Below are positions 1,788-37,879 of a stretch of DNA of 64,000 bases, piece by piece (the stretch's first letter is position 1; each line of letters opens with the position of its first letter). Position numbers and translations under genes: made by a program. The stretch comes from an uncultured bacterium (GTDB lineage Bacteria > Omnitrophota > Gorgyraeia > Zapsychrales > Aceulaceae): NCBI GenBank assembly GCA_937930175.1, contig CALGLP010000013.1, positions 75,764 through 139,763 on the forward strand, read 5' to 3'. Under the pieces are notes generated by a model. That model saw only the letters and a list, made by a program, of their open reading frames with translations, had not been told where the DNA came from and searched no databases.

Positions 1788-2651
1788 ATGAGGGGAATTA
1801 TTCTAGCTGGTGGCAAGGCAACACGTCTTTATCCCATTACGAAGGCCGTTTGTAAGCAGCTCTTGCCGATTTATGATAAGCCGATGATCTATTACCCTTT
1901 GTCTGTTTTGATGCTTGCAGGCATTCGGGATATCCAGATCATTTCGACACCTAAAGACTTGCCTCGGTTCCAGGATTTATTAAAAGAGGGAAAAGATTTT
2001 GGGATCCGTTTAAGCTATGCGTCACAAGAGGAGCCTAATGGCATTGCAGAGGCGTTTCTGATCGCAGAAGATTTTATTGGGAGAGATAGGGTTTGCTTGA
2101 TCTTAGGCGACAATGTCTTTTTTGGCCAAGGTCTTTCAGGGATTCTGCAAAAAGCCGCAAATCAGAAGAAGGGTGCGACAATTTTTGGTTATTATGTCAA
2201 CAATCCTCAGAGTTATGGTGTCCTTGCTTTAGATAAGCATAATAAAATCCTTTCGATTGAAGAAAAACCTAAGAAACCAAAATCTCATTATGCTGTGACG
2301 GGGCTTTATTTTTATGACAATGATGTTGTTAATATTGCGAAGAAGATTAAACCGTCGAAGCGTGGCGAGAAGGAAATTACGGATGTCAACTTGGCCTATT
2401 TCAAAAAAGGTGATTTACATGTTGAGCTTTTAGGACGCGGACATGCGTGGCTTGATACCGGGACTTATGAATCTTTGATTGAAGCATCTGTTTTTATCAA
2501 AACCATTGAGCAGCGTCAAGGGCTCAAAATTGGGTGCTTGGAAGAAGTGGCGTATCACAAGGGCTTTATTTCCAAAGAAAAATTGGTTTGTTTGGCTCAA
2601 GAGTTTCACACCAGTTATGGCGAATATTTATTAAAGGTTGCAAGCGAATAG
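1788..2651 (+). CDS. rfbA: glucose-1-phosphate thymidylyltransferase
   Basis: [18 protein letters not shown]... nucleotidyltransferase signature and RmlA-like length. The start was moved to the internal ATG at 1788. Confidence 0.9.
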
Positions 2652-2662
2652 GAGTAAGGTTT

Positions 2663-3223
2663 ATGCCATTTGATTTTCAATCTTTTGATATCCCTGGATT
2701 GTTGTTGGTTACCCCTAGGGTTTATAGCGATGATCGGGGATTCTTTAAGGAGATTTATAAATTCTCAGAATTTTTTGCCGCTGGGATCCAAAAACCTTTT
2801 GTTCAGGCCAATCATTCGTTGTCCAAGAAAAATACCCTGCGTGGCCTGCATTATCAAAAGAAACCTTTTGCTCAAGCCAAGCTCGTGCGAGTTTTGCGAG
2901 GTGAGATTTTTGATGTTGCGGTGGATATCCGCAGGGGATCTCCATTTTATGGAAAATACGTGAGCGTCTCTTTGAGTGCTGATCGTGCCAAGATGTTTTT
3001 TATTCCTGAAGGGTTTGCGCATGGGTTTCTGACCTTGTCCGAGGAAGCTGAGGTGGAATATCTTTGTTCTGAGGTGTATTCACCTCAACATGAACAAGGC
3101 ATTATGTTTAATGATCCCACTTTGAATATTTCCTGGCCTTTAAAAACTCCAATTCTTTCTAAGAAAGATAGCCTTTATCCTGCGTTCAAGCATGCGGATA
3201 ATCATTTTATCTTTGCGAAATGA
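2663..3223 (+). CDS. rfbC: dTDP-4-dehydrorhamnose 3,5-epimerase
   Basis: Cupin-fold RmlC motifs (RGLHYQ, FIPEGFAHGF). ATG at 2663 is preceded by GGAG. Confidence 0.9.
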   Translation: MPFDFQSFDIPGLLLVTPRVYSDDRGFFKEIYKFSEFFAAGIQKPFVQANHSLSKKNTLRGLHYQKKPFAQAKLVRVLRGEIFDVAVDIRRGSPFYGKYVSVSLSADRAKMFFIPEGFAHGFLTLSEEAEVEYLCSEVYSPQHEQGIMFNDPTLNISWPLKTPILSKKDSLYPAFKHADNHFIFAK

Positions 3224-3939
3224 GAAAAAAGATGATCACAAAAGCAGAGTTTGAAAGTAGCGCTACGGGTCAAGAAATTTATCGAGTTGAAGGCGTAAGA
3301 GATTTTAAGGCCTTGGAAGAAGAATTGGCGGCGTGCCCATATCATGTGATCGTAAAGGTCGACTCTGCAGAGACTGATGCGATTCGTTTCTTAGCTTCCC
3401 AAGGGTTTTGTTACAACTCAACGATTTTGCATTTAAAGCGCGATCTTCAAGATGTTATTTGTGCGGAAAATAAAAAGATTCAAAAGCTTTCCTTAGCCCA
3501 CCAAGACCAATTGTTTAAGATTTGTGATGAGGCATTTTGTCATAATCAAAATCGATACACCGACGATCCTTTATTAAGAAATTTTTGCGCGCAGATTCAT
3601 CGCGCGTGGATCTTAAATAGCCTCAACGGATTTGCAGATTATAACATTGGTTATTTTGAGCAGGAAAGCCTTGCAGGTTTTGGGACGCTGCACTTTAAAG
3701 AAGAGTGCGCGATCATTGGCTTGATCGCAACAGAGCAAAGTTATCGCGGAAAAGGGATTGGCACGCACGTGGTTCAGGGTCTTATTGCTTATGCGATTCA
3801 GAATCAGAAAAAAATACTGATTGTGAAGACCCAGGCAACAAATGTTTTTGCGCTTAACCTTTATGGTCGTAATGGTTTTTTTCTTTTTGGTTCTGAGGTG
3901 ACTTTGTACCGTGAAAGGCGAAATGTTTTAGCGCCATGA
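3220..3939 (+). CDS. GNAT-family acetyltransferase (WecD-like two-domain architecture)
   Basis: C-terminal acetyl-CoA motif RGKGIGTHVV. N-terminal extra domain as in dTDP-aminosugar N-acetyltransferases. ATGA overlap with rfbC. Confidence 0.6.
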   Translation: MRKKMITKAEFESSATGQEIYRVEGVRDFKALEEELAACPYHVIVKVDSAETDAIRFLASQGFCYNSTILHLKRDLQDVICAENKKIQKLSLAHQDQLFKICDEAFCHNQNRYTDDPLLRNFCAQIHRAWILNSLNGFADYNIGYFEQESLAGFGTLHFKEECAIIGLIATEQSYRGKGIGTHVVQGLIAYAIQNQKKILIVKTQATNVFALNLYGRNGFFLFGSEVTLYRERRNVLAP

Positions 3940-4787
3940 AGAATCGATTTCTTGTGTTAGGATCCACGGGGCAACTTGGTAGGGCTTTTCAGAAAGCGTT
4001 AACCAGGGAAGATGAAAAACATTTTTTCCTATCCCACCAAGATTTAGATATCACCGATATCGATAAGCTTACTCGCTGTATCAAAGAGATCAAGCCAACC
4101 GTTGTGATTAATTGCACGGCTTACAATGATGTTGATCTGGCGGAGAAGAAAAGTGAGGACGCTTTTCGTATCAATGCGACGGCGGTTCAAAATCTTGCGG
4201 ATGTCGCCCATAAAAGTAATATTTTTTTGATTCATTACAGCACAGACTATGTCTTTGATGGCGCGAAGCATACTCTTTACACCGAACAAGATACGCCAAG
4301 CCCTCTGAATTGCTATGGCCAAAGCAAGCTCGCCGGAGAGAGGGCGCTTGAAGGAATTTTAAAGGATTATCTTCTTTTTCGTGTTAGTTGGGTTTTCGGA
4401 AAAGGCGAGCGTAATTTCCTCGCCAAGGCCACCAAGTGGGCGAGCGCGCAAAAGGAAATACGTATTGCCCAAGATGAAGTCTCCATCCCCACTTTTACCG
4501 ACGATATTGTGAATGCTACGCTTTTGGCTTGTACAAAAGGCATGAGCGGGCTTTATCATCTGACCAATACGGAGCATTGTTCGCGTTATGATTGGGTAAG
4601 ATTCTACTTTGAAAAAAAAGGCTTTAATAATAGAATAATACCTGTTTCGTCGGATGATTTTCACCTCGCAGCCAAACGGCCAAAATTTTCAGCCATGGCC
4701 AACAGCCAGTTGTGTTTGGCTTTGAAAAGCAGTATTCCGTCTTGGCAAGAGGCGGTCATGCGTTTTGTTCAAATGGAGGAAAAATAA
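3936..4787 (+). CDS. rfbD: dTDP-4-dehydrorhamnose reductase
   Basis: N-terminal Rossmann LVLGSTGQLG and RmlD-like length. 4-nt overlap with the upstream gene. Confidence 0.85.
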   Translation: MKNRFLVLGSTGQLGRAFQKALTREDEKHFFLSHQDLDITDIDKLTRCIKEIKPTVVINCTAYNDVDLAEKKSEDAFRINATAVQNLADVAHKSNIFLIHYSTDYVFDGAKHTLYTEQDTPSPLNCYGQSKLAGERALEGILKDYLLFRVSWVFGKGERNFLAKATKWASAQKEIRIAQDEVSIPTFTDDIVNATLLACTKGMSGLYHLTNTEHCSRYDWVRFYFEKKGFNNRIIPVSSDDFHLAAKRPKFSAMANSQLCLALKSSIPSWQEAVMRFVQMEEK

Positions 4788-4791
4788 TTTT

Positions 4792-6021
4792 ATGAAAGTC
4801 CCTTTCGGAACCATTAATATTAATCAGCGGGCTAAGGATTTGGTGAATGAGGTTTTAGATTCTGGGCGTGTCTCAAATGGTAAATTTGTTGGTGAATTTG
4901 AAGAGCGTTTTGCGAAGCTTGTGAATGCCAAGGAGGCGATTGCCGTGAGCAGCGGTACGGATGCTGATATCATTGCGCTAGCGGTGCTGTATGATTTCGG
5001 GGCCCAGCGTGGTGATGAGGTTATTGTCCCGGCACTTTCGTTTGTGGCTACAGGCAATGCTGTCTTGCATGCAGGATTTGCGCCGGTCTTTGTTGATATT
5101 GAGCGGGAGACGTTAAATATTGATCCCTCAAAGATTGAAGCGGCCATTACCTCAAGGACGCGCGCAATCATGCCTGTTCATCTGATGGGTAAGCCTGCGA
5201 AGATGGATGCTATTATGAAGATTGCCAAAAAACATCATCTTCTTGTTGTTGAAGATGCCGCAGAAGCCCATGGCGCTGTTTATCAAGGGAAAAAAGTTGG
5301 AGAGTGGGGAGATCTTGCAGCCTACAGCGTTTATTTAGCGCATATCATTACAGCTGTTGAAGGTGGAGTTGTGACGACCAATAATGAAAAGATGGCGGAA
5401 ATTGTGCGGTCACTGCGCTGTCATGGCAGGGCCTGCAAATGTAAGGTTTGTGTGGTCAATACGTCTAATAGCTATTGTGAGAAACGTTTTGCCAAGGGAA
5501 AAGATATTCGTTTTATTTTTGAGCGCGTTGGCTATTCGTCGAAAATGAATGAGCTTGAAGCCGCGGTTGGTTTGGCGAGTCTTGATCTTTATCCGGAAAC
5601 GATTGCGAAGCGACATCATAATCTCATCACCATGATCGAACGTTTAAAAGAGTTTGAGTCCTTTTTGACAACGATCAAAGAAGAGCCAGGAGAAATCATT
5701 GGCCCTCATGCTTTTCCTATGATTGTGAAAGAAGGTGCACCGTTTACACGCGATGAGCTTGTTGATTATTTAGACAAGCATGACATTGACACCCGTGATC
5801 TTTTTTCCTCGATGCCAACGCAGTGCCCAGGCTTTGCTTTCCTTGGATTAAGACAGGGTGATTTTCCCCATGCAGAGTTTATTGGCAACAACGGTCTTCA
5901 CATTGGTGTGCATCAGGATATTCATCAGGAACATATTGATTATGTCATGAAAACGATCAAGGATTTTATTGCTCTAAAGACGGTGGGTGTTAAAGCGATA
6001 GCGAGGAAAAAGAAGGTGTAG
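4792..6021 (+). CDS. DegT/DnrJ/EryC1-family PLP/PMP enzyme, predicted sugar 3-dehydratase (E1/ColD/SpnQ-like, His in place of the catalytic Lys, Cys-rich insert)
   Basis: Gapless alignment of SVYLAHIITAVEGGVVTTN...RSLRCHG onto the DegT block SFHAIKNITCAEGGIVVT...RSLKFHG puts His where the Schiff-base Lys sits. C-x-C lies 31 and 33 residues after that His, in RCHGRACKCKVCVVNTSNSYC. Confidence 0.8.
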   Translation: MKVPFGTININQRAKDLVNEVLDSGRVSNGKFVGEFEERFAKLVNAKEAIAVSSGTDADIIALAVLYDFGAQRGDEVIVPALSFVATGNAVLHAGFAPVFVDIERETLNIDPSKIEAAITSRTRAIMPVHLMGKPAKMDAIMKIAKKHHLLVVEDAAEAHGAVYQGKKVGEWGDLAAYSVYLAHIITAVEGGVVTTNNEKMAEIVRSLRCHGRACKCKVCVVNTSNSYCEKRFAKGKDIRFIFERVGYSSKMNELEAAVGLASLDLYPETIAKRHHNLITMIERLKEFESFLTTIKEEPGEIIGPHAFPMIVKEGAPFTRDELVDYLDKHDIDTRDLFSSMPTQCPGFAFLGLRQGDFPHAEFIGNNGLHIGVHQDIHQEHIDYVMKTIKDFIALKTVGVKAIARKKKV

Positions 6022-6047
6022 TTTTTTGTATTCTATTTGGAGGTTTT

Positions 6048-6746
6048 ATGAGTATGAAGCTTTCTGTTCTTATTCCCTGCTATAATGAAAAAAATACGAT
6101 CGCGGCACTTATTGACGTTGTCCGCAACTCTCCGTATGGGAATAAAGAAATCATTGTGATTGATGATTGTTCTAGCGATGGAACGCGTGAGCTGCTTAAG
6201 GGTGGCTTAGGGGTTAAGGTCGACAAGGTGATTTATCAGGATCGAAACTTAGGCAAAGGAGCAGCCCTTAGGGCGGGTATCAAGGAAGCATCCGGAGATA
6301 TTGTGATCGTTCAGGATGCCGATTTGGAGTATGACCCTGGTGAATATCTTAAGGTTATTTCACCGATTTTGCAGAATAAGGCCGATGTGGTTTTTGGTTC
6401 TCGCTTTATTAGCGGTGAGCCTCATCGCGTTGTCTATTTTTGGCACATGGTCGGTAACAGCTTTCTGACGTTATTATCGAATATTTTTACTAATCTTAAT
6501 CTGACGGACATTGAAACCTGTTACAAGGCCTTTCGACGGGAAATCATCCAATCTATCAAGATTGAGGAGGATCGTTTTGGTTTTGAGCCAGAGATTACGG
6601 CAAAAATCGCTAAGAAAAAATGTCGTATTTATGAGGTTGGGATTTCTTATTACGGCCGAACTTATGAAGAAGGCAAGAAGATTGGCTGGAAAGATGGCGT
6701 GCGGGCCATTTATTGTATTTTTAAGTACAATCTTTTTCGGCACTAG
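6048..6746 (+). CDS. family 2 glycosyltransferase (polyprenyl-phosphate sugar transferase-like)
   Basis: LSVLIPCYNE...VIDDCSSDGT...DADL GT2 motifs. The start may instead be the ATG at 6054. Confidence 0.8.
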   Translation: MSMKLSVLIPCYNEKNTIAALIDVVRNSPYGNKEIIVIDDCSSDGTRELLKGGLGVKVDKVIYQDRNLGKGAALRAGIKEASGDIVIVQDADLEYDPGEYLKVISPILQNKADVVFGSRFISGEPHRVVYFWHMVGNSFLTLLSNIFTNLNLTDIETCYKAFRREIIQSIKIEEDRFGFEPEITAKIAKKKCRIYEVGISYYGRTYEEGKKIGWKDGVRAIYCIFKYNLFRH

Positions 6747-6773
6747 GCGACGTGTGCGCACAAGGAGCTTTGG

Positions 6774-7520
6774 ATGATTGAAAATAAAAAAGTTGTTGTT
6801 GTTCTGCCAGCATATAACGCGGAAAAAACGCTGCAACGCACCTATGACGAGATTCCTAAAGGTATCGTCGATGAAGTGATTTTGGTGGATGATCATTCGG
6901 GGGATAAAACCGCTGAGCTTGCTCGACAACTTGGCATTGAGGTGATTGTTCATCCTGAAAATAGAGGTTATGGTGGCAACCAAAAGACATGCTACCAGGA
7001 AGCCCTGAAAAGAGGAGCAGATATTGTTGTGATGTTGCATCCAGATTATCAATATCCTCCAAAACTTGTGGCTCCTATGGCTTCGTTGATTGCCTCGGGG
7101 ATGTTTGATGTGGTTTTGGGGTCGCGTATTTTAGGTGGATACGCGATTAAAGGGGGAATGCCTTTTTATAAATATGTTGCCAATAGGCTGCTGACAGCTT
7201 TTGAGAATATTTTGACAGGGCAGAAGCTTTCAGAGTACCACACAGGGTTTCGCGCTTATTCAAAAGCTGTGCTTGAGCGTATTTGTTTTGAACGCAATTC
7301 CGATGATTTTGTTTTTGATAATGAAATGCTGACACAGATCTTTTATTTTCAATACCGCATTGGAGAAATTAGCTCGCCGTGTTCCTATAACCAAGACTGT
7401 TCTTCGATTAGTTTTCGTCGGAGTGTTATTTATGGGCTGGCTGTTGTGAAGACGACGCTACGCTTTTTCTTGGCAAAACACAAAATGGTGCGTGACCCTC
7501 TGTTTGATCCCAAGATATGA
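6774..7520 (+). CDS. family 2 glycosyltransferase (dolichyl-phosphate mannose synthase-like)
   Basis: VVLPAYNAE...LVDDHSGDKT...GNQKT motifs. AGGAG RBS. Confidence 0.8.
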   Translation: MIENKKVVVVLPAYNAEKTLQRTYDEIPKGIVDEVILVDDHSGDKTAELARQLGIEVIVHPENRGYGGNQKTCYQEALKRGADIVVMLHPDYQYPPKLVAPMASLIASGMFDVVLGSRILGGYAIKGGMPFYKYVANRLLTAFENILTGQKLSEYHTGFRAYSKAVLERICFERNSDDFVFDNEMLTQIFYFQYRIGEISSPCSYNQDCSSISFRRSVIYGLAVVKTTLRFFLAKHKMVRDPLFDPKI

Positions 7521-8050
7521 GCTTTCTTAAATTGGTTCGACAGCGACAAAGTTGCCGTAGCTATGCTAAGACGCCCGTGTCGCAGGAAGCACTTGCGCGC
7601 TGCCTCGAGGCAGCGCGCCTTTCACCTTCGGCGTGCAATTCCCAGGCCTGGCGTTTTATTATTGTCAGCGATCCGGTGTTGCGCGTGCGTCTGGCCGAAA
7701 AGGCTTTTGGCGGTGTTTATGCCATGAACGCTTTTGCCAGGGAAGCCCCAGTGTTGGTTGTTGTGGTTACCGAGCGTTCCAAGTATGTTGCGCAAGTTGC
7801 CGGCGCGACACGCGGTACGCAATACAATTTGATTGATATTGGCATCGTGTGTGAGCATTTTATTCTCCAGGCGACGGAAGAGGGTCTGGGCACTTGCTGG
7901 ATCGGCTGGTTTGACCAGAAAGGTGTCCGTGAGGTTCTTGGATTATCTAAAAAAGACTCACTTGATATCATGATCAGTGTCGGTTTTCCTTTAGATACCC
8001 CGCGAGAAAAAGTGCGTAAGGATATTAAAGATGTGGGCGAGACAAGATAG
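7517..8050 (+). CDS. nitroreductase-family flavoprotein
   Basis: RQSCRSY...SPSACNSQAWRF nitroreductase motif. ATATGA overlap with the upstream GT2. Confidence 0.75.
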   Translation: MSFLKLVRQRQSCRSYAKTPVSQEALARCLEAARLSPSACNSQAWRFIIVSDPVLRVRLAEKAFGGVYAMNAFAREAPVLVVVVTERSKYVAQVAGATRGTQYNLIDIGIVCEHFILQATEEGLGTCWIGWFDQKGVREVLGLSKKDSLDIMISVGFPLDTPREKVRKDIKDVGETR

Positions 8051-8116: not shown

Positions 8117-8144
8117 CACGCGTCATTGACAAACCATCAGAAAT
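8117..8144 (+). promoter_or_regulatory. sigma70 promoter for pgk (consensus -35 and -10)
   Basis: TTGACA at 8117-8122, 16-nt spacer, TATAAT at 8139-8144, about 85 nt upstream of the pgk ATG. Confidence 0.55.
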
Positions 8145-8227
8145 ATATATAATATTCCTAATTTTACTAAAGCATTTTCTTCACGTGAAATCATTCAGAG
8201 GCCCCTATTAACCCAAGGAAGGTTTTT

Positions 8228-9455: not shown

Positions 9456-9818
9456 ATGGAAGGGAAGATTAAGAGTTTCAAAGATCTTAGAATTTGGCAA
9501 AAGGGTATTGAAGTCGTAGCGGATTCATATCAATTAACAAAGAATTTTCCTAAAGAAGAGCTTTACGGGTTAACGTCTCAGATTCGCAGATCGAGCGTGT
9601 CCATTCCTTCAAATATTGCTGAAGGGTTTAAAAGATACCACAACAAGGAATACAAGCAGTTTTTATTTATTGCTCTTGGTTCCTTGGCAGAACTGGAGAC
9701 GCAGTTGATTATCGCCGAGAAACTGAATTTTGTTAACCTGCAAGACCTTCAGAATGTTTCTAGCAAAATAGAATACTTGTCAAAGATGATTTCTTCGCTA
9801 ATGAAAAAATTGTCTTAA
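9456..9818 (+). CDS. four-helix-bundle protein (23S rRNA intervening-sequence protein family)
   Basis: KDLRIWQKGIEVVADSYQLTKNFPKEELYGLTSQIRRSSVSIPSNIAEGFKRYHNKEY...LGSLAELETQL matches the TIGR02436/PF05635-type signature by recall. Confidence 0.8.
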   Translation: MEGKIKSFKDLRIWQKGIEVVADSYQLTKNFPKEELYGLTSQIRRSSVSIPSNIAEGFKRYHNKEYKQFLFIALGSLAELETQLIIAEKLNFVNLQDLQNVSSKIEYLSKMISSLMKKLS

Positions 9819-20375: not shown

Positions 20376-23300
20376 TTAACGCGTGTTCGGGCTTTTGGGT
20401 ACAAAATGAGCCGTAGCAATCCGATTATTTGTAACACTCGGAATATTAAGCGTCAGTTCAGCACCCTTACCTGCTCCTTTGCCTTCCACTTCCCATTGGA
20501 CGAATTCATAGTTCGCCGGGGTAATCGGGATGAATGTTTCATTAAAAGAACTTCCTGGGGCAACAAGATACGCTAAGATGGTGCCTTCCTCAGGAGTATT
20601 GCTTATTTTCTTGACCAAGGCCCCTAGTGTGCCGTCGGTTTTAACAATAATCGTGTAGCCTCCGACAAAATGCTTCACAATCGAATTAGTTACTTGCCCT
20701 TGCCAGTCAGGGTTATCTGCGCCTGCCCAGGCAGGGAAAGCAAATCCGGGAGCTGAAGGAGTTATTTTCACTTGAGCGCCTGGAGGAACGTTCAGCGAAT
20801 AATTTATGTTCGGAACGGGAATGACTTGAGTTGTTCCGTTGACTACCGCGGTTAATATTGCGGTTGGGATCGCTCCACCATTTTTATTCTTAATCGTTCC
20901 AGATACGGTTATGTACGCATTGCTGTTAACTCCTTTAAAGTGTTTGGCAATGTTGGCAACTCCGACTGTTCCTGACCAGCTAGGGTTATCAGCGCCAGCC
21001 CAGGCAGGGTAGGTGTAGCCGTTAGGCATATTATTCTGAGGGATCAAAGCAACAGAATCTCCCGTAAAAACGTTGAAGGTATATGTGCCGTTGGAGACAT
21101 CGATTAGCTGAGTATTTCCATTAATGACTCTGAGCAGTTTAGCCCCCGGGATAGGCTGATTGGTATAGTAATCACGGACCGTTCCCGAGATGATGATGTT
21201 GCCGACAGCAGGTACACCTTTAAAATCTTTAATGGTGTTAGCTTGCACATAGCCTTCCCAGTTTGGATTCGCACCCCCTGCCCAACCGGGAAACGTATAA
21301 TGAGGAGAGTTAGGCGTATAAGGGGTTATCTTAACGTAATCGTTAGGATGAACAGTAAAGCTGTAGGATCCATTTGATTGAACCGAGACGACAGATTGCT
21401 GGTTATTAACATACGCGGATATTTTTGCGTTTGCAATAGGTTGGCCTGTTTCATAGTGCTTAACTGTTCCAGATACTGTTAGATTAGTTCCGGAAATATT
21501 CACTCCCCTAAAATTCTTAACAGTGTCTTCAAAAACAGTTCCTGACCAGCTAGGGTTGTCCGATTCCTCTGCCCAGGCAGGATAGGTGTAGCCGTTAGCC
21601 GGCGTAGGTGTTACGGATACCTGATCACCCGGGTGGACATTAAAAGAATACGTGCCATTTGAAAGAGTGAGAACTTCAGAGTTTCCGTTGATCGTTTTCG
21701 TTAGCTTTGAATTCTGAATTAATGCATTGGTATAGTGATCGCGTAGCGTTCCGGAAACTGTCACGGTCGTCGCGTCGCTGACCCCTCTGAAATGTTTGGT
21801 AACATTTGTCGTAACACTCCCAAGCCATGAGGGATTGTCCTGTGCTGCCCAATCAGGAAAAGTATAGCCTTCAGCAGACGGGGTTAAAGATACGTTAGAA
21901 CCAGCTCGGACGGTGAAAAGATACTCACCGCCAGGAACATTATAAACTTCAGTAATGCCGTCGGCTACCACGGTTAACTTTGCGGTGGGGATCGGGTTTT
22001 CCGTTTCGTATTCAAGGATCGTTCCTGAGACAACAATCCTTGAGGTGTCTCCAAAAATATAGGCTGATCCCGAATCTTGGCCATTGTCATCATCATAGGG
22101 GCTTCCTACGATAACCGCATTTCCTGAAATGCAAACTTGGAATCCAAAGCGATCAAGATCGCTAGGGCCTGCATCCGATAAAAGAATCCGATTTTCAATC
22201 CACTCTTCATTGAGGTCTTTAGCAAAAACATAAACACCGCTTGTGTCAGCACCTGGTATCCAATGAGGATTGCCTTCTTGAAAATAGGGGCTTCCGATGA
22301 GGGCGTACTTATTTGAAAGCGAAACGGATAGTCCAAACTGTGTTACAGCGCTTGCATCTTCGGGTACGACTTTTTGGTTAGGGTACCAGTTGCCGTCTTC
22401 ATCTTTGATGAGGAAATAAGCAGCGCCGGAAGTGTTTCCGTCTTCTGTATCAAAAGGAGCTCCGACAAGGACCTCGTTTTCCGACATATCAATGGACACA
22501 GATTGGCCAAAGTAAGCAGCTACAGTGTTGTCATCGCTTGAAACCGGGGGTTTTTCATCCCAGCCGTATTCACCTTTTTTGAAGAAATAAACTGCTCCGG
22601 CATCAAAGACTCCATTACTGTCATGTTGAGGAGCTCCGACAACGGCTGTATTTTCAGAAATTGCTACCGAGGTGCCAAAGGCATCGTATGCGTCAAGTCC
22701 GTTTGGAGAAAGCCAGCTTTTTTGGGTCCAGCCTTCGGCATCAGTTTTAACGAAGATATATGCGGCTCCGGGAGGGTTTGGATGTCCGTAGCCTGGACTT
22801 CCGATAATCGCTGTATTTCGGAAAATAGAAACTGATTCGCCGAATCGTGCATTTGCACTAGCCGGGGTTGCAAAAATTTTCTTTACCCGTTCCCATACTC
22901 CTTGAGCATTACGCTTAAAGATGTATGCAGCTCCGGCACGATAACCTTTTTCCCCATCGTGAGGAGCTCCGATGATCACCGTATCTTTTGAGATAGCAAC
23001 AGATCTCCCAAAGAGTGATCCTGCGGCAGGAACATCAGGGAAAAGTTCAATGATTTCTTTCCATACCTTGTCAGCATCTAGCTGAAAAATGTAGGCAGAT
23101 CCATTGTCCGTTGCTTGTGTGAGTGGTGATCCGACAATGGCAGTGTCGCCTGAAATAGAAACAGATTTTCCGAAGTATTCAACAGGATAGCCATATTCGG
23201 GCAAGATTTTCTTTAATCGTTGCCATCCAGGAGCTGTTCCATCGCCAGGGCCTCCAGCTTCTTTTTCTGCTTCCTTAAAGAAAGACTCCGGGATGCGGTT

Positions 23301-23474
23301 AGGGGTTGTTGATTGCTCTACGGCAGCGGGTGCTGATTCAGTTTTGGCATTGCGGTTAAAAGCTTTTGAGCCGTCTACGGCAGCCGAAAAGACCTGGCCG
23401 GGAATAGAGAAGTTGACAAAGATAACCAAGGTTAACAGCCTAGCTAAAAATTTGTTTCTCATTTTTTCCTCCAT
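20376..23474 (-). CDS. large secreted FG-GAP beta-propeller protein with five tandem roughly 95-aa beta-sandwich modules (putative adhesin)
   Basis: Signal peptide. About 7 FG-GAP-like repeats (FGxSVSIsgdTAivGsP...GAAYIF). Then 5 tandem repeats each ending ...YTYPAWAGADNPSWSGTV...KHFKGV. Confidence 0.8.
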   Translation of the reverse strand: MEEKMRNKFLARLLTLVIFVNFSIPGQVFSAAVDGSKAFNRNAKTESAPAAVEQSTTPNRIPESFFKEAEKEAGGPGDGTAPGWQRLKKILPEYGYPVEYFGKSVSISGDTAIVGSPLTQATDNGSAYIFQLDADKVWKEIIELFPDVPAAGSLFGRSVAISKDTVIIGAPHDGEKGYRAGAAYIFKRNAQGVWERVKKIFATPASANARFGESVSIFRNTAIIGSPGYGHPNPPGAAYIFVKTDAEGWTQKSWLSPNGLDAYDAFGTSVAISENTAVVGAPQHDSNGVFDAGAVYFFKKGEYGWDEKPPVSSDDNTVAAYFGQSVSIDMSENEVLVGAPFDTEDGNTSGAAYFLIKDEDGNWYPNQKVVPEDASAVTQFGLSVSLSNKYALIGSPYFQEGNPHWIPGADTSGVYVFAKDLNEEWIENRILLSDAGPSDLDRFGFQVCISGNAVIVGSPYDDDNGQDSGSAYIFGDTSRIVVSGTILEYETENPIPTAKLTVVADGITEVYNVPGGEYLFTVRAGSNVSLTPSAEGYTFPDWAAQDNPSWLGSVTTNVTKHFRGVSDATTVTVSGTLRDHYTNALIQNSKLTKTINGNSEVLTLSNGTYSFNVHPGDQVSVTPTPANGYTYPAWAEESDNPSWSGTVFEDTVKNFRGVNISGTNLTVSGTVKHYETGQPIANAKISAYVNNQQSVVSVQSNGSYSFTVHPNDYVKITPYTPNSPHYTFPGWAGGANPNWEGYVQANTIKDFKGVPAVGNIIISGTVRDYYTNQPIPGAKLLRVINGNTQLIDVSNGTYTFNVFTGDSVALIPQNNMPNGYTYPAWAGADNPSWSGTVGVANIAKHFKGVNSNAYITVSGTIKNKNGGAIPTAILTAVVNGTTQVIPVPNINYSLNVPPGAQVKITPSAPGFAFPAWAGADNPDWQGQVTNSIVKHFVGGYTIIVKTDGTLGALVKKISNTPEEGTILAYLVAPGSSFNETFIPITPANYEFVQWEVEGKGAGKGAELTLNIPSVTNNRIATAHFVPKSPNTR

Positions 23475-23926: not shown

Positions 23927-25123
23927 TTATCGATTGAGTGTAGCTTTAAACTTCTTTGTTAAGAGGGGAACAACTTGGAACACATCCCCCACAATACCAT
24001 AGTTGGCTACGGTAAAGATCGGGGCATGGGGATCCTGATTGATCGCAAGAATGATGTTGGAGGATTGCATGCCAACCAGATGTTGGATCTGACCGGAAAT
24101 TCCGCAGGCAATATAGAGCTTGGGGCAAACCGTTTTTCCCGTTTGGCCAACTTGATGGGAGTAGGGCATCCATCCCGCATCGACCGCAGCGCGCGAAGAC
24201 CCAACAGCCCCACCTAAGACCTGCGCAAGTTCTTCGAGCATGGCAAAATTTTCAGGGCCTTTAAGTCCGCGTCCTCCAGAAACAATGATATCCGCTTCCG
24301 CGATATTGATTGTGGAGGTGATTTCCTCAACAATATCCAGAAGTTTTGTTCGTGAGGTGAGAAACGTTTTGGGAATGGCTTCTTCGATGATCTTGCCTTT
24401 ACGCGTTTTATCAACCGCAGCTTCTTTGAAAACTTTGTGACGCACGGTGGCCATTTGCGGACGATGATTCTTGCTTAAAATGGTCGCCATGATATTGCCG
24501 CCAAAGGCTGGTCGTGTTTGCATCAGGAATTTTTCTTTTTCATCGATATCGAGTCCCGTGCAATCGGCGGTGAGGCCGGTGTGCAGCTTAACGGCAACTC
24601 GTGAAATGAGCGACCGGCCGATAAAGGTTGCCCCGCACAAAAAGATTTCAGGCCGATATTTGCGCACTAGGTTAACAATGGTTTTGGTGTAGGGCTCGTC
24701 CAGGTAGTGTTCAAGCTCGACGGTATCAACGATATAGACATTATCTGCCCCACGGGAAATAAGTTCTTGCGCTTTGTCTTTGATGTTGTGGCCCAAGAGA
24801 ACGCAGGAGACATCGCTTCCTAATTTTTCACTTAAATCGCGTGCCTTGCCAAGAAGCTCGTAAACAACGGATTGGATCACGCCTTTTTTCTGCTCAGCAA
24901 AAACCCAAATGCCTTTATATTCTTCGATATTGGGTGTTTTGCTGGAATCTCTCTTGAGATCGATGGCATTAAATTTACAGGAATCAACGCAGGCGCCGCA
25001 GAGGGTGCATTTATCGTAATCAATCACCGCTTTTTTATTGGTCATGGTCAAGGCGCAAAAAGGACAGACCTTGACGCAAAGACTACAGCCAGTACATTGT
25101 TCTTTGATGATTTGAATGCCCAT
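23927..25123 (-). CDS. etfA: electron transfer flavoprotein alpha subunit with an N-terminal 2x[4Fe-4S] ferredoxin domain
   Basis: N-terminal CTGCSLCVKVCP and CTLCGACVDSC motifs, then the EtfA FAD-binding domain (GISGQIQHLVGM...). Confidence 0.85.
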   Translation of the reverse strand: MGIQIIKEQCTGCSLCVKVCPFCALTMTNKKAVIDYDKCTLCGACVDSCKFNAIDLKRDSSKTPNIEEYKGIWVFAEQKKGVIQSVVYELLGKARDLSEKLGSDVSCVLLGHNIKDKAQELISRGADNVYIVDTVELEHYLDEPYTKTIVNLVRKYRPEIFLCGATFIGRSLISRVAVKLHTGLTADCTGLDIDEKEKFLMQTRPAFGGNIMATILSKNHRPQMATVRHKVFKEAAVDKTRKGKIIEEAIPKTFLTSRTKLLDIVEEITSTINIAEADIIVSGGRGLKGPENFAMLEELAQVLGGAVGSSRAAVDAGWMPYSHQVGQTGKTVCPKLYIACGISGQIQHLVGMQSSNIILAINQDPHAPIFTVANYGIVGDVFQVVPLLTKKFKATLNR

Positions 25124-25124
25124 G

Positions 25125-25907
25125 TTAGATCAGCCTATCCTTTAATGCTTCGATAATCTTGGTGGTTGTCTCTTCAGGATCCCCCTCGAGAATGTGCCCT
25201 TTGGGGCGTGGTGGAGGTGTAAAAATTTTAGAAACCCACGTGGGAGAACCCTTGAGGCCTAGTTTTTCTTCTTCGAGATCGAGATCAATAGCTTTCCAAG
25301 AGAGAATTTCGGCTTTTTTGGCCTTCATGCGTCCTTTGAGCGACGGAATGCGAGGTTCGTTGATTTCTTTGACAACGGTCAAAAGGCAGGGCAGGGATGT
25401 TCGAACAATTTCAAAACCTTCCTCGGTCATGCGTTCAACCGTGGCATGATTGTCTTTGACATCTTCAATCTTTTTTACATACGTGACTTGAGGGATGTCC
25501 AGTTGTGTGGCGATGCCGGGCCCAACTTGCGCTGTATCTCCGTCAGAGGCTTGTTTCCCACAGAGGATGATGTCGTAGTCCTTGAGTTTGCGAATCGCCA
25601 TGGCTAGGGTGTAACCTGTGGCCAGAGTATCCGATCCAGCAAACGCACGATCGCTTACCAAACAGGCTTCATCGCAGCCCATCGAGATGGCTTCACGCAA
25701 GGCCGCATCGGCTTGCGGGGGCCCCATGCTGATCACGGTTGTCTTGCCGCCGTATTTTTCTTTAAGACGAACACCTTCTTCAATGGCGTACATGTCAAAG
25801 GGATTAATGATCGACTGGACGCCTTCGCGAATCAGGGTATTGGTAACAGGATCAATGCGCACCTGGGTTGTATCAGGAACTTGTTTAATGCAGACAATGA
25901 TATTCAT
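25125..25907 (-). CDS. etfB: electron transfer flavoprotein beta subunit
   Basis: MNIIVCIKQVPDT... EtfB signature and 260-aa length. Confidence 0.85.
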   Translation of the reverse strand: MNIIVCIKQVPDTTQVRIDPVTNTLIREGVQSIINPFDMYAIEEGVRLKEKYGGKTTVISMGPPQADAALREAISMGCDEACLVSDRAFAGSDTLATGYTLAMAIRKLKDYDIILCGKQASDGDTAQVGPGIATQLDIPQVTYVKKIEDVKDNHATVERMTEEGFEIVRTSLPCLLTVVKEINEPRIPSLKGRMKAKKAEILSWKAIDLDLEEEKLGLKGSPTWVSKIFTPPPRPKGHILEGDPEETTTKIIEALKDRLI

Positions 25908-27064
25908 TAGGATTTGGATGTTTCCTTGATCAAGTTGAGCGCGATAATGTTGCGTTGAATCTGATTGGTGCCTTCATAAATTTGCGTGATCTTGGCATCG
26001 CGCATATATTTTTCAACCGGGTATTCTTTCATGTAACCATAACCGCCAAAGATTTGCACGGCATCGGTTGTGACCTTCATAGCGACATCCGAGGCAAAAA
26101 GCTTGGCCATCGAGGAATCTTTAGAAACCGTTTTGGTGCTGCCTGCATCGATTTGACGTGCGGAGGCGTAAATCAAGGCACGGGCGGCTTCAATTTGTGT
26201 GGCCATGTCGGCGAGCATGAATTGAATGCCTTGAAAACTGGAAATGGATTTTCCAAATTGTTTTCGTTCTTTGGCATATTTGACCGATGCTTCAAAAGCG
26301 CCTTGGGCAATACCCACGGCTTGGGCTCCAATGCCTGGGCGCGACATATCAAATGTTTTCATGGCAATCAGAAATCCTTGGCCTTCTTTGCCGATCATAT
26401 TTTCTTTGGGAACGCGGCAATCGGTAAAAATAAGCTCGCGTGTCGCTGATCCGCGAATACCAAGCTTGTCTTCTTTTTTGCCAAAGGTAAACCCGGGAGT
26501 TCCTTTTTCAACGATAAAGATGCTCGCGCCACGAGCCCCTCTATCTTTGTTGGTCATGGCAACAACGGTGTAGATTTCAGCTTCGCCGCCATTGGTGATG
26601 AAATGTTTTGTTCCATTGAGGATATAGTGATCGCCATCTTTTTTGGCTGTGGTTTGCATGGCACTCGCATCGGATCCAGCGGCGGGCTCGGTAATCGCAA
26701 AGGCTGCGAGTCTTTTTCCTGCCGCAATGCTGGGAAGATATTTTTCTTTTTGTTCTTCACTGCCAAAAAGAAGAATGGGATCTGTCCCTAAGGCTGTTGC
26801 CGAGAAGGCGAGGGCGATGCCTGCGCACCCTCGTGAAAATTCTTCCGTCGCGATGCAGAGCTCTAGAAGACCGCCACCCATGCCACCGTATTTTTCTTCG
26901 ATGTAGACACCAAAGATGTCTGATTCTGCCATGACCTTGACAACTTCCCATGGAAATTCTTCACTTTTATCAAGCTGAGCCGCAATGGGCGTTATTTTTT
27001 CATCGGTAATTTGTCTGCAGAGATCTCTGAGCATCACTTGTTCTTCGGTGAGCAAATAATCCAT
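25907..27064 (-). CDS. bcd: acyl-CoA dehydrogenase (butyryl-CoA dehydrogenase-like)
   Basis: 385 aa. Acyl-CoA dehydrogenase N, middle and C domains (…YEGTNQIQRNIIA…). Confidence 0.85.
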   Translation of the reverse strand: MDYLLTEEQVMLRDLCRQITDEKITPIAAQLDKSEEFPWEVVKVMAESDIFGVYIEEKYGGMGGGLLELCIATEEFSRGCAGIALAFSATALGTDPILLFGSEEQKEKYLPSIAAGKRLAAFAITEPAAGSDASAMQTTAKKDGDHYILNGTKHFITNGGEAEIYTVVAMTNKDRGARGASIFIVEKGTPGFTFGKKEDKLGIRGSATRELIFTDCRVPKENMIGKEGQGFLIAMKTFDMSRPGIGAQAVGIAQGAFEASVKYAKERKQFGKSISSFQGIQFMLADMATQIEAARALIYASARQIDAGSTKTVSKDSSMAKLFASDVAMKVTTDAVQIFGGYGYMKEYPVEKYMRDAKITQIYEGTNQIQRNIIALNLIKETSKS

Positions 27065-31904: not shown

Positions 31905-33602
31905 ATGCCCTCATCAGAAATTAAACGCATTGGCGATTTGCTTGTGGAGAAAGGGTTGATCACCTCAGATCAGCTTAGCCACGCGTTGACGGATCAGAAA
32001 AAGAGCGACAAGAAGTTAGGCGAGATTTTGATCCACAAGGGATATGTCCGCGCCCCTGACTTGGTCCGTATGTTGGCTGAACAATTTCACTTGCCCTTTG
32101 TTACCCTCAAAAATGAACCCATCGATGATAAAGCGATTGCGGCGATCCCTCCTCTCAAAGCCCAGGAGTGGCATATTTTTCCTTTTCGTTTGCAGGAGGG
32201 GGTTCTGACCGTCGCTGTTGTGAATCCTCTGGATGTCGCGCTTTTTCAAGAATTGCGTTATTTGACCGGGTTTAAAATTAATCCTGTTGTTGCCTGTTCG
32301 GAAGATATTGATAATTTTATTTCACGGTATTTTGGCGCAAGCCATAACATCGAGGAAGCGGTTCTGGATGCCGATAACGAGACGCTTGCCAAGGATGGCG
32401 CGCATCAAGCCGCGAGTGATGGCGATGTTGATCAGGCTCCGGTTGTGCAGCTTGCGCGAACTGTGATCCAGGACGCGATCAAGCTCCATGCGTCTGATAT
32501 CCACATGGAACCCCAGAAAAAAGATTTGCGCGTGCGCTATCGCGTGGATGGTGTATTAAAGGAAGTCTTGCGCGTTCCCAAGAAAATCCAGACGACCTTG
32601 ACCTCCCGCATCAAGATCATTAGCGGCATGGATATCGCCGAAAGCCGCAAGCCTCAGGATGGCCGCCTTCAAGTGGAGCTCAATAAAAAGAAATATGACT
32701 TGCGCGTTTCAACCCTCCCAGATGCCTTTGGAGAAAAAATCGTTTTGCGTATTTTGGATAAAGAAAATGTCAATTTGAGTCTGGAATCGATCGGCCTTGA
32801 GGAGAGAAATCTTTTATTCTTGCGTCAGATTATTAAAACACCGTATGGCATTATTCTTGTTACAGGTCCCACAGGAAGCGGCAAGAGTACGTCGCTCTAT
32901 TGCATGCTAGGTGAGATCAACGACGAGAGCCGCAATATCGTAACCTTAGAAGATCCCATTGAATATGAGATTGACGGCATCAACCAGACCGCGATCAATG
33001 TTTTAGCAGGGTATACCTTTGCTAAAGGCATGCGCCATATTTTGCGTCAAGACCCAGATGTCATCATGGTTGGAGAAGTCCGTGACGTGGAAACCGCGGA
33101 GATCGCGGTGCAAGCCGCGCTGACAGGGCATTTGGTGCTGTCCACATTGCACACCAATAATGCGGCTGGCGCTGTGATGCGATTGCTGGACATGGAAGTA
33201 GAACCATTTCTTATTAGCTCGTCAATCGTGGCGGTCATCGCACAGCGCTTGGTGCGTCGTTTATGTCCCCACTGCAAGAAGCCCGCCGCATTATCAGATA
33301 ATTTAAAGAAAATGGTGGAAGGTTATTTTCCAGGGCTAGCGCAAAAAACATTTTTGGCTGCGGTGGGATGTGAAAAATGCAATCATATTGGTTACAGCGG
33401 ACGAACAGGTATTTTTGAAATTATGCAAGTCACTCCTGAGGTCAAAGATATGATCTTACGAAAGCCCACGGAGCAAGAAGTAGAAGCCCTGGCCATGAGC
33501 CAGGGGATGCAAACCTTACAACAGAGTGCAATGGATAAGGCGATTGCGGGAGAAACATCTCTCGAGGAAGTCGCGCGTGTCACCTTTGTCAAGAGGATTT
33601 AA
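31905..33602 (+). CDS. pilB: type IV pilus assembly ATPase (GspE/PilB family)
   Basis: N-terminal GSPII_E N-domain, Walker A GPTGSGKST, tetracysteine CPHC...CEKC, Asp/His boxes. Confidence 0.9.
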   Translation: MPSSEIKRIGDLLVEKGLITSDQLSHALTDQKKSDKKLGEILIHKGYVRAPDLVRMLAEQFHLPFVTLKNEPIDDKAIAAIPPLKAQEWHIFPFRLQEGVLTVAVVNPLDVALFQELRYLTGFKINPVVACSEDIDNFISRYFGASHNIEEAVLDADNETLAKDGAHQAASDGDVDQAPVVQLARTVIQDAIKLHASDIHMEPQKKDLRVRYRVDGVLKEVLRVPKKIQTTLTSRIKIISGMDIAESRKPQDGRLQVELNKKKYDLRVSTLPDAFGEKIVLRILDKENVNLSLESIGLEERNLLFLRQIIKTPYGIILVTGPTGSGKSTSLYCMLGEINDESRNIVTLEDPIEYEIDGINQTAINVLAGYTFAKGMRHILRQDPDVIMVGEVRDVETAEIAVQAALTGHLVLSTLHTNNAAGAVMRLLDMEVEPFLISSSIVAVIAQRLVRRLCPHCKKPAALSDNLKKMVEGYFPGLAQKTFLAAVGCEKCNHIGYSGRTGIFEIMQVTPEVKDMILRKPTEQEVEALAMSQGMQTLQQSAMDKAIAGETSLEEVARVTFVKRI

Positions 33603-33605
33603 ACG

Positions 33606-34805: not shown

Positions 34806-34834
34806 AAGATTATAAAAATAAAGGGAGGAAGAAA

Positions 34835-35230: not shown

Positions 35231-35257
35231 TGAAAGGTTAGTAAAACTTTTAAATAT

Positions 35258-36730: not shown

Positions 36731-36733
36731 GTT

Positions 36734-37877: not shown

Positions 37878-37879
37878 GA

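Follow-up and report, generated by a model that had tools for sequence, protein, structure and literature searches.

We consider it reasonably probable that a single operon in an uncultured Omnitrophota bacterium directs synthesis of nucleotide-activated 6-deoxy and 3,6-dideoxy sugars along with the first transfers of those sugars, and that it consists of a conserved core joined by three lineage-specific additions. The eight genes occupy positions 1788–8050 of a 64-kb stretch of DNA, the whole of which was analyzed and is called the window here. The likely product, judged from sequence, is dTDP-L-rhamnose and/or a dTDP-3,6-dideoxy-L-hexose, which would be handed to Dpm1/ArnC-like GT2 glycosyltransferases. 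As a cell-surface sugar operon, the locus is genuine yet fairly ordinary.

Profile matches, taken gene by gene, bear out the gene content, order, and coordinates given in the original prediction. All eight genes lie on the + strand. Specifically, rmlA (1788..2651) encodes glucose-1-phosphate thymidylyltransferase (TIGR01207, 462 bits; cutoff 360.65), rmlC (2663..3223) encodes the cupin dTDP-4-dehydrorhamnose 3,5-epimerase (TIGR01221, 230 bits; cutoff 155.75; PF00908, 232 bits), and rmlD (3936..4787) encodes dTDP-4-dehydrorhamnose reductase (TIGR01214, 274.6 bits; cutoff 224; PF04321, 278 bits), so each of the three exceeds its equivalog cutoff for the rhamnose pathway. Between rmlC and rmlD lies a gene for a two-domain, WecD-fold GNAT N-acetyltransferase (3220..3939; PF00583, 54.8 bits). 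Downstream of rmlD come genes for a DegT/E1-like 3-dehydratase, called E1L (4792..6021; PF01041, 341 bits), a Dpm1/ArnC/GtrB-like GT-A glycosyltransferase, GT2a (6048..6746; PF00535, 124 bits), a Dpm1/ArnC-like GT-A glycosyltransferase, GT2b (6774..7520; PF00535, 84 bits), and a small FMN nitroreductase-family protein, NTR (7517..8050; PF00881, 124 bits). No junction exceeds 27 nt, and the proposal of a single, tightly packed deoxysugar/glycan operon is upheld. The accompanying claim that most genes overlap by 4 nt was correct that such overlaps exist but overstated their number: they occur at three of the seven junctions (rmlC/GNAT, GNAT/rmlD, and GT2b/NTR), and the other four are gaps of 11, 4, 26, and 27 nt. 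Each of the three overlaps involves a gene missing from the nearest relative, locus L117.

The 3′ end of the operon is marked by the pgk promoter, a perfect sigma-70 consensus (TTGACA-16-TATAAT, 12/12 positions) at 8126..8153 on the + strand. This promoter is kept in L117, where E1L and GT2b are 87% and 80% identical, respectively, to their window counterparts and the order is metF, then rmlA, rmlC, rmlD, E1L, and GT2b, and then the homologous pgk promoter, beginning ~20 nt past the GT2b stop. Orthologs of rmlA (74–82% identity) hold the same position in L005, L015, L115, and L117. The core conserved in the nearest relatives is rmlA-rmlC-rmlD-E1L-GT2, and the genes for GNAT, GT2a, and the nitroreductase are the lineage-specific additions. 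Compared with L117, where it has no ortholog, GT2a is an insertion. GT2b, whose ortholog directly follows E1L there, is the conserved partner 3′ of E1L in the nearest relative.

The sole solved relatives of the two glycosyltransferases are polyprenyl-phosphate enzymes: DPMS (5MLZ, E 2.9e-22), ArnC, and GtrB for GT2a, and DPMS (5MLZ) and ArnC for GT2b. The top NCBIfam matches, namely AglJ, dolichyl-phosphate hexose transferase, and PpgS, all fall far under their cutoffs. The window GT2s differ from Dpm1, ArnC, GtrB, and PpgS in lacking C-terminal transmembrane helices (a hydrophobic segment scan found none), and the 64-kb window contains no gene for a GT-C partner. The notion, predicted from sequence, is that these helix-less enzymes would pass the sugars on, probably to polyprenyl phosphate or a lipid-linked acceptor.

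E1L is probably an E1/SpnQ-class, PMP-dependent NDP-4-keto-6-deoxyhexose 3-dehydratase with an Fe–S center. Its earlier description as an E1-like dehydratase and not a normal transaminase is strengthened by two features, a histidine at the lysine position and a Cys-rich insertion. Specifically, His184 occupies the position of the Schiff-base (PLP) lysine, aligning with His220 of E1 (3BCX) and with the catalytic lysine of perosamine synthase and WecE, and residues C215, C217, and C229 align with E1 C251, C253, and C261. His184 and C215, C217, C220, and C229 are invariant in 80/80 E1L sequences, and the Lys-type paralogs encoded at E1L loci do not have the Cys-rich loop. At the position of E1 ligand C193, E1L has Ala; thus, the putative metal center could be 2Fe–2S, 4Fe–4S, or even Zn. 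The AlphaFold model of E1L has pLDDT <50 at residues 172–250, which span His184 and the Cys loop, and is unreliable there.

Three known 3-dehydratases provide points of comparison, and their mechanisms have been reviewed (PMC8987622). The first is E1 (RfbH/DdhC/AscC) of Yersinia and Salmonella, a CDP-6-deoxy-L-threo-D-glycero-4-hexulose 3-dehydrase whose reductase is E3 (AscD/RfbI). E1L resembles E1 in its DegT/aspartate aminotransferase fold, in the substitution of His for the Schiff-base Lys, and in the position of the Cys-rich loop. The two differ in Cys pattern, C-x57-C-x-C-x7-C in E1 versus C-x-C-x2-C-x8-C in E1L, with C220 of E1L within the loop. They also differ in that RfbH (NF011936), the best NCBIfam match of E1L, gives 293.6 bits, under the cutoff of 423, in that E3 occurs near none of the 80 E1L loci, and in context, which is rfbF and rfbG for E1 and dTDP-rhamnose genes for the window E1L. 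ColD of the GDP-L-colitose pathway (ColD/ColC) is likewise a 3-dehydratase with His, and an Fcl-like epimerase/reductase acts after it, a logic mirrored by the window (E1L with RmlC and RmlD) and by the cassette in which E1L commonly occurs (E1L with an Fcl-like SDR). However, ColD has no Fe–S cluster and regenerates PMP with glutamate, whereas E1L possesses the invariant four-Cys loop; against an E1L query, ColD scores 164 bits and E1 198 bits. The third, SpnQ (also UrdQ and LanQ), is the Saccharopolyspora dTDP-4-keto-2,6-dideoxyglucose 3-dehydratase, and it is likened to E1L by description, not by sequence. SpnQ is a PMP and Fe–S enzyme that acts on a dTDP-sugar, as proposed for E1L, and its pathways continue with RmlC-type 5-epimerases and 4-ketoreductases, like RmlC and RmlD of the window. 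The natural-product pathways in which SpnQ works also feature 2-deoxygenation, unlike the window locus, which has no 2,3-dehydratase. SpnQ has no dedicated reductase gene and draws on general Fd/FNR or Fld/FNR systems (PMC8987622); likewise, no dedicated reductase gene, ferredoxin gene, or E3-like gene is a conserved neighbor of E1L. E1L is probably an uncharacterized iron–sulfur sugar 3-dehydratase.

The pathway we propose begins with RmlA, whose equivalog-level homology suggests that it would produce dTDP-glucose. RmlB from outside the 64-kb window would then supply dTDP-4-keto-6-deoxy-D-glucose, since RmlC, RmlD, and E1L alike require a 4-keto sugar. The reported lack of rmlB holds for the locus and for the entire window, in which a tblastn search with E. 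coli RfbB (E ≤ 1e-3) found no homolog and the DEVYG motif is also missing. Nor is rmlB present within 10 kb of any rml-linked relative; its provision in trans is thus assumed. From the 4-keto branch point, RmlC and RmlD would generate dTDP-L-rhamnose. E1L would form a PMP-ketimine, with His184 as the base, and expel the 3-OH. Reduction of the glucoseen by two single electrons, via a cluster on C215, C217, C220, and C229, would yield a 4-keto-3,6-dideoxy sugar, as the conserved residues and the E1/SpnQ mechanism suggest. C5 epimerization by RmlC and C4 reduction by RmlD could convert this product to an ascarylose-type dTDP-3,6-dideoxy-L-hexose (3-deoxy-L-rhamnose), a step proposed by analogy because E1L orthologs elsewhere precede a GDP-fucose-synthase-like epimerase/reductase. 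The order 4,6-dehydratase, C3-dehydratase, C5-epimerase, C4-reductase has precedent (PMC10440746). RmlC and RmlD, scoring as bona fide rhamnose enzymes, may refuse 3-deoxy substrates. The electrons would most likely come from general cellular ferredoxin/flavodoxin systems, as with SpnQ.

A different sugar could be the substrate. Specifically, E1L could use a GDP- or CDP-4-keto-6-deoxy sugar made elsewhere, leaving the rml genes to produce dTDP-L-rhamnose only and the adjacency of the two to reflect polysaccharide-locus mosaicism. We regard this alternative as unlikely, although several observations are consistent with it, among them the rhamnose-level scores of RmlA, RmlC, and RmlD. The rml-linked E1Ls (those of the window, L005, L006, L007, and L015) form one clade nested inside the cassette-type Omnitrophota E1Ls, and the window E1L is ~75% identical to cassette orthologs that adjoin HddA-like kinases, guanylyltransferase-like NTP transferases, and Fcl-like SDRs. 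Moreover, ~3.6 kb downstream in L015 lie a bona fide rfbF (414 bits against a cutoff of 300) and a gene resembling that for CDP-glucose 4,6-dehydratase. Nonetheless, throughout the rml-linked clade rmlD lies directly 5′ of E1L, and this junction, ranging from a 4-nt overlap to a ~70-nt gap, is kept in 7/7 clade loci despite variation in the genes downstream. The 64-kb window harbors no GDP- or CDP-sugar genes, and RmlA and RmlC plus RmlD would replace exactly the functions of the cassette NTP transferase and Fcl-like SDR.

The GNAT raises a second, more doubtful alternative. Its AF2 model (pLDDT 92.5) best matches WecD (2FS5_A; TM 0.81/0.87), with which it shares a two-domain fold. As in the E. 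coli locus for enterobacterial common antigen (ECA; rffH-rffC(wecD)-wecE), whose WecE/WecD pair serves the dTDP-Fuc4NAc branch, the GNAT gene resides among dTDP-sugar genes beside a DegT-family gene. E1L, alone or additionally, could therefore be the 4-aminotransferase partner of the GNAT, leading to a dTDP-4-acetamido-4,6-dideoxy or 4-acetamido-3,4,6-trideoxy hexose; the 64-kb window contains no Lys-type DegT, and SpnQ does transaminate without reductase (PMC8987622). We judge this arrangement quite improbable. E1 and ColD do not show the transaminase side activity (PMC8987622), the window DegT partner possesses His and not Lys, and its His184 and four-Cys loop are invariant with or without a GNAT nearby. 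Furthermore, close relatives can do without the GNAT (L117 and L006 keep E1L but have no GNAT gene), and a GNAT relative in L057 is paired with a Lys-type DegT. The likeness to WecD also has bounds: PRK10975 (WecD) covers the full GNAT length yet scores 66.7 bits versus a cutoff of 219, and identity to E. coli WecD over the GNAT domain is 26%. The earlier remark that this acetyltransferase has no obvious amino-sugar source stands, its DegT partner being of the dehydratase type, and the WecD-fold GNAT is predicted to be an accessory tailoring enzyme.

E1-type enzymes require an external reductant (PMC8987622), and the nitroreductase had been put forward as a surrogate E3. The 64-kb window has no E3/AscD gene, and NTR is probably co-expressed with the operon, given its 4-nt overlap with GT2b, its location 5′ of the pgk promoter, and the failure of a promoter scan to find one dedicated to it; this leaves room for recruitment. 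That comparison of synteny which the original prediction suggested goes against such a role, with NTR homologs present in 0/80 loci containing E1L orthologs (tblastn, E ≤ 1) and rml, E1L, GNAT, and GT2 genes in 0/27 NTR-relative loci. Every informative relative places NTR in a housekeeping context: its orthologs (62–83% identity) occupy a conserved NrdR/BFN/PolyA-pol/NUDIX/(RR-HK)/NTR/PsiE/EF-G neighborhood. For two of these orthologs, the source MAG also contains an E1L locus, and on contig Ga0172367_10000061 the ortholog lies ~78 kb away from the E1L locus. In L117, the pgk promoter is directly 3′ of GT2b without NTR between them. The best PDB match of NTR is 8CQT (E 7.5e-42), and its 80–83% identity to orthologs elsewhere gives no sign of neofunctionalization. 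Nitroreductase-fold enzymes typically perform obligate two-electron hydride transfer and have no Fe–S center, whereas E1 requires two sequential one-electron transfers. It is thus very improbable that NTR has been recruited in this lineage as an NAD(P)H-dependent donor for E1L, replacing E3/AscD; rather, NTR is a flavoenzyme of the housekeeping type, and its gene is a recent arrival in the interval that separates GT2b from the pgk promoter.

Beyond the window, the E1L subfamily is widespread, usually in a conserved, undescribed cassette. Across the 80 loci, E1L is commonly flanked by genes for an NTP transferase (60), a GHMP kinase (58), and an SDR (62), and the cassette SDRs tested are Fcl-like (370–398 bits). 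This cassette is a more interesting lead than the window operon.

Eight co-directional genes lie on the forward strand at 1788–8050, and ORF listing together with profile searches bore out the gene content originally predicted for this locus. The order is rmlA (1788–2651), rmlC (2663–3223), a gene encoding a WecD-like GNAT acetyltransferase (3220–3939), rmlD (3936–4787), the gene for E1L, an E1-like member of the DegT family (4792–6021), two GT2 glycosyltransferase genes, GT2a (6048–6746) and GT2b (6774–7520), and the nitroreductase gene NTR (7517–8050). RmlA, RmlC, and RmlD are equivalogs of the dTDP-L-rhamnose pathway, each exceeding its cutoff (TIGR01207, 462 bits versus 361; TIGR01221, 230 versus 156; TIGR01214, 275 versus 224). 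Both GT2 proteins match PF00535, and NTR matches PF00881 at 124 bits. From rmlA to NTR, the gaps between successive genes are 11, −4, −4, 4, 26, 27, and −4 nt, an arrangement that looks like one operon. The claim that most genes overlap by 4 nt was too strong, as such overlaps occur at only three of the seven junctions. Upstream, the boundary is a divergent metF gene. Downstream, it is a sigma-70 promoter preceding pgk (8126–8153; TTGACA-16-TATAAT) that matches the consensus at 12 of 12 positions. The end of metF has a 4-nt overlap with a minus-strand gene (197–811) whose 204-aa product is rich in Gln and Ala, looks secreted, and lacks any Pfam match, and this gene pair is kept upstream of rmlA in the relatives' loci L015, L115, and L117.

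PF01041 (DegT/DnrJ/EryC1, fold-type I aminotransferase) covers residues 11–389 of E1L at 341.5 bits. The top NCBIfam match is the RfbH equivalog, NF011936, at 293.6 bits against a threshold of 423; thus, E1L belongs to a related subfamily rather than to the RfbH equivalog itself. By phmmer, E1L His184 aligns with His220 of E1, the RfbH/DdhC/AscC sugar 3-dehydrase of Yersinia and Salmonella, and with the catalytic Lys of perosamine synthase and of E. coli WecE. An insertion of ~25 residues, missing in aminotransferases, matches the E1 cluster loop. Specifically, E1 residues C251, C253, and C261 correspond to C215, C217, and C229 of E1L. The fourth E1 ligand, C193, is replaced by Ala, and E1L instead possesses an extra cysteine, C220. 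The resulting four-Cys motif, C-x-C-x2-C-x8-C, is spaced unlike the [2Fe-2S] motif of E1 (C193, C251, C253, C261). In an alignment of 80 E1L sequences, one from the window and 79 from other loci, H184, C215, C217, C220, and C229 are invariant in all 80, while position C210 is mostly Ser. The loop is missing from Lys-type DegT paralogs encoded in the same loci, and one classical RfbH-like paralog displays the E1 pattern; the alignment therefore separates the types. On the basis of the His at the Lys site, the Cys-loop alignment, and the invariant residues, E1L is predicted to be a PMP-dependent dehydratase of the E1/SpnQ class (mechanism reviewed in PMC8987622) with a variant four-Cys motif. 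Modeled with AlphaFold from an alignment of 16 sequences, E1L reaches a mean pLDDT of 67.6, and values drop below 50 at residues 172–250, which span His184 and the Cys loop.

E1L orthologs are widespread. A scan using one genome per species identified 80 loci, at 62–84% identity, in Omnitrophota, Planctomycetota, Elusimicrobiota, Nitrospirota, Desulfobacterota, Dependentiae, a Shapirobacteria genome, and a Thermoplasmata MAG. ORFs were called in the neighborhoods and clustered, and cluster representatives were profiled. Recurrent neighbors are an SDR (62 of 80 loci), a guanylyltransferase-like NTP transferase (60), an HddA-like GHMP kinase (58), a B12-binding radical SAM enzyme (52), and a split transketolase (25–27) or, alternatively, PDH-E1 alpha/beta genes (11–18). 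A further member is an SDR that resembles GDP-L-fucose synthase (Fcl), scoring 370–398 bits where tested, below the cutoff of 500. This cassette (loci L008–L084; exemplified by L008:4113–12128) accompanies E1L in most of the 80 species-level genomes. The combination of B12-radical SAM enzyme, split transketolase, GHMP kinase, NTP transferase, and Fcl-like SDR suggests an undescribed pathway to a dideoxy sugar, branched or methylated, that uncultured bacteria would commonly carry in their envelopes. Literature searches on the E1L subfamily and its cassette returned nothing relevant, and no member is described in the searchable literature. Among the 80 loci, the conserved neighbors of E1L include neither a ferredoxin gene nor an E3-like one. 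SpnQ likewise lacks a dedicated reductase gene (PMC8987622).

Some E1L genes are linked to rml genes. The rml-linked sequences from the window, L005, L006, L007, and L015 form one clade nested among cassette-type Omnitrophota sequences; the loci L115/L116 and L117, which are not part of that tree, show the same arrangement of genes around rml. Throughout this clade, E1L directly follows rmlD, and a GT2 gene comes after. RmlA would stand in for the cassette's NTP transferase, and RmlC plus RmlD would stand in for its bifunctional Fcl-like epimerase/reductase. It is mainly this parallel that leads us to propose cooperation among E1L, RmlC, and RmlD, which together would yield a dTDP-3,6-dideoxy-L-hexose. 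In Campylobacter, the characterized order is 4,6-dehydratase, C3-dehydratase, C5-epimerase, C4-reductase (PMC10440746), a precedent for such a sequence of steps. Farther downstream, relatives carry large variable polysaccharide loci (L015:14788–16562, L005:7183–10411). In L015 these include rfbF, a CDP-glucose 4,6-dehydratase-like gene, gmhA, and an hldE-like gene; in L005, pseB and a gene for a 713-aa RmlD-like/PseC fusion protein; and in L115, genes for Wzz, NeuB, and UDP-GlcNAc 2-epimerase.

The nearest distinct relative, L117 (87% identity in E1L, 82% in RmlA, 80% in GT2b), has the order metF, rmlA, rmlC, rmlD, E1L, GT2b. Compared with L117, the window contains three insertions, namely GNAT, GT2a, and NTR, and the inserted genes are involved in all three of the 4-nt overlaps. 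The locus thus provides a clear case in which neither a 4-nt overlap nor operon membership signifies functional partnership, as every overlap involves a recently inserted gene. Nucleotide homology between the window and L117 ends at position 5974. The E1L C-terminal tail that follows, LKTVGVKAIARKKKV (5975–6021), adds ~11 residues relative to the 396–400-aa orthologs, and this stretch marks the GT2a insertion breakpoint.

The original prediction had speculatively cast NTR, at the operon's 3′ end, as a surrogate for E3 (AscD/RfbI), the reductase that serves E1. The domain content of NTR is that of a nitroreductase only (PF00881 and PF14512). It lacks the domain set of E3/AscD, in which FNR-like domains binding FAD and NAD accompany a plant-type 2Fe-2S ferredoxin domain, and contains no Fe-S motif. 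Its top PDB match is a small nitroreductase, 8CQT, on which a literature search found nothing relevant. Linkage also argues against the proposed role. NTR homologs occur in 0 of 80 E1L loci (tblastn, E ≤ 1), and in L117 the pgk promoter homolog is kept and begins ~20 nt past the GT2b stop codon, with no NTR in between. NTR orthologs of 177–180 aa are plentiful in Omnitrophota, Kiritimatiellae, Verrucomicrobiota, and Elusimicrobia. Five that were compared (62–83% identity) all occupy one conserved housekeeping neighborhood, which runs, in order, NrdR, a BFN-domain protein, CCA/poly(A) polymerase, a NUDIX protein, in some cases a response regulator with a histidine kinase, NTR, PsiE, and an EF-G paralog. 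A metagenome scan brought 22 further loci, and among the resulting 27, none has rml, E1L, GNAT, or GT2 genes around NTR. Two of the five come from MAGs that also carry E1L, and there the genes are unlinked: the NTR ortholog and the E1L locus lie on contigs 6 and 26, respectively, of CAZAOD01 and on contigs 26 and 5 of JAVCDE01. On the JGI contig Ga0172367_10000061, rmlA-rmlC-GNAT-rmlD-E1L, with an upstream flank matching that of the window, is at ~54 kb, and an 82% identical NTR is at ~133 kb, ~78 kb away. Because NTR is an insertion here and unlinked elsewhere, the dedicated-reductase hypothesis is not supported, and it is very probably a mistake to regard NTR as a novel type of E3. A narrower version, in which NTR was recruited as the E1L reductase in this lineage only, could draw on its place in the window's operon; given the same linkage data, we consider it highly improbable. 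Two other candidate partners were considered. A FAD-dependent (DAO-family) oxidoreductase lies directly upstream of E1L in just 6 of 80 loci and is not a general partner, and the AbiEi/AbiEii genes were rejected as redox partners because they are a toxin–antitoxin pair. The latter, a type IV pair, sits between E1L and the next GT2 gene in several close relatives (L005:4235–5679, L007:2125–3566, L015:11300–12800, L115:11300–12800) and is not present in the window.

The concern that GNAT has no obvious amino-sugar source is well founded. The AlphaFold (AF2) model of GNAT (pLDDT 92.5) shows a two-domain fold, comprising an N-terminal domain and the GNAT domain. Its top PDB match is WecD (2FS5_A; TM 0.81/0.87, rmsd 2.3 Å over 232 columns), with runners-up at TM ≤ 0.65. 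Over the GNAT domain, the protein shares 26% identity with E. coli WecD, and both WecD equivalog cutoffs are missed (PRK10975, full length but weak at 66.7 bits versus 219; TIGR02382, 33 versus 195). GNAT is very probably a nucleotide-amino-sugar N-acetyltransferase, which makes the puzzle real. The 64-kb window encodes no Lys-type DegT 4-aminotransferase. An unlinked aminotransferase may supply the GNAT substrate, or E1L may do so through a transaminase side reaction like that of SpnQ (PMC8987622). A homolog search yielded just eight close relatives. Within the rml-linked group, the window, L005, L015, and L115/L116 have GNAT, and L117 and L006 lack it, which makes it accessory to the E1L pathway.

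The reported lack of rmlB likewise held within the 64-kb window, by tblastn with E. coli RfbB and by motif scan, and no rmlB lies within 10 kb of any rml-linked relative locus. A 4-keto sugar is needed by RmlC, RmlD, and E1L alike, and the gene for a 4,6-dehydratase would therefore have to lie elsewhere in the genome; other bacteria are known to have dispersed rml genes. The downstream SDRs of L015 and L115 were considered as a hidden rmlB and rejected: they fall short of the cutoffs, score level with GalE, and have TSSLYAG in place of TDEVYG, features by which we classify them as epimerase-like.

The only solved relatives of GT2a and GT2b are polyprenyl-phosphate glycosyltransferases, namely Pyrococcus DPMS (5MLZ), ArnC, and GtrB. 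Neither protein has a TM helix; Dpm1/PpgS-type enzymes without TM helices exist. The conserved GT2 partner that accompanies E1L in L117 is GT2b, and GT2a is the insertion. By these resemblances, it is plausible that the two GT2s help make polyprenyl-phosphate-linked deoxysugars.

We speculate about how these components could fit together, in a joint scenario that we hold only tentatively and think more apt to fail than to stand in full. The notion is that E1Ls, with their His/CxCx2Cx8C signature, would constitute a widespread Fe-S/PMP 3-dehydratase subfamily, and that the E1L of the rml-linked clade would have been grafted onto RmlA/RmlC/RmlD from a cassette of GHMP kinase, guanylyltransferase, Fcl-like SDR, B12-radical-SAM enzyme, and transketolase. 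The resulting dTDP-3,6-dideoxy-L-hexose would be of the ascarylose type (3-deoxy-L-rhamnose), made via a hitherto undescribed dTDP route, and a Dpm1-like GT2 would load it on polyprenyl phosphate for envelope decoration.

With NTR very probably not an E3, the locus itself, a mosaic but ordinary glycan operon, is of modest interest. The E1L subfamily and its usual cassette are more interesting leads. Although a variant of a known enzyme class, the subfamily is highly conserved (62–87% identity in at least eight phyla) and distinguished by its four-Cys loop; it has neither a dedicated reductase nor a characterized member. As dTDP-4-keto-6-deoxyglucose is easily made, the rml-linked E1L offers a natural entry to its biochemistry.

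The 64-kb window contains no E3/AscD, second DegT, or GT-C enzyme. Elsewhere it carries pgk, tpiA, secG, an opp transporter, glgC, etfAB with an acyl-CoA dehydrogenase gene, smc, type IV pilus genes, dnaG, rpoD, and aromatic amino-acid genes. Going by the names of its homologs, the organism belongs to Candidatus Omnitrophota. Between pgk and tpiA (9456–9818) is a gene for a 120-aa "23S rRNA intervening sequence protein" (PF05635, 137 bits), a bAvd-like four-helix bundle kept at the same position in loci L001–L003. On the minus strand at 23927–27064, genes for acyl-CoA dehydrogenase, EtfB, and an EtfA with an N-terminal 2x[4Fe-4S] ferredoxin domain form a bifurcating-type Bcd/Etf arrangement that is unlinked to the glycan operon; the window has no other obvious module for low-potential electron transfer. 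Finally, two large proteins possess CarboxypepD_reg domains (20376–23474, minus strand, and 39693–42074); six FG-GAP repeats occur in one of these proteins, of 1032 aa. The second is encoded within a type IV pilus/T2SS-like cluster (31905–43912) that also includes genes for a PilB-like ATPase, a PilC-like protein, a PilN-domain protein, a secretin, and a pseudopilin.
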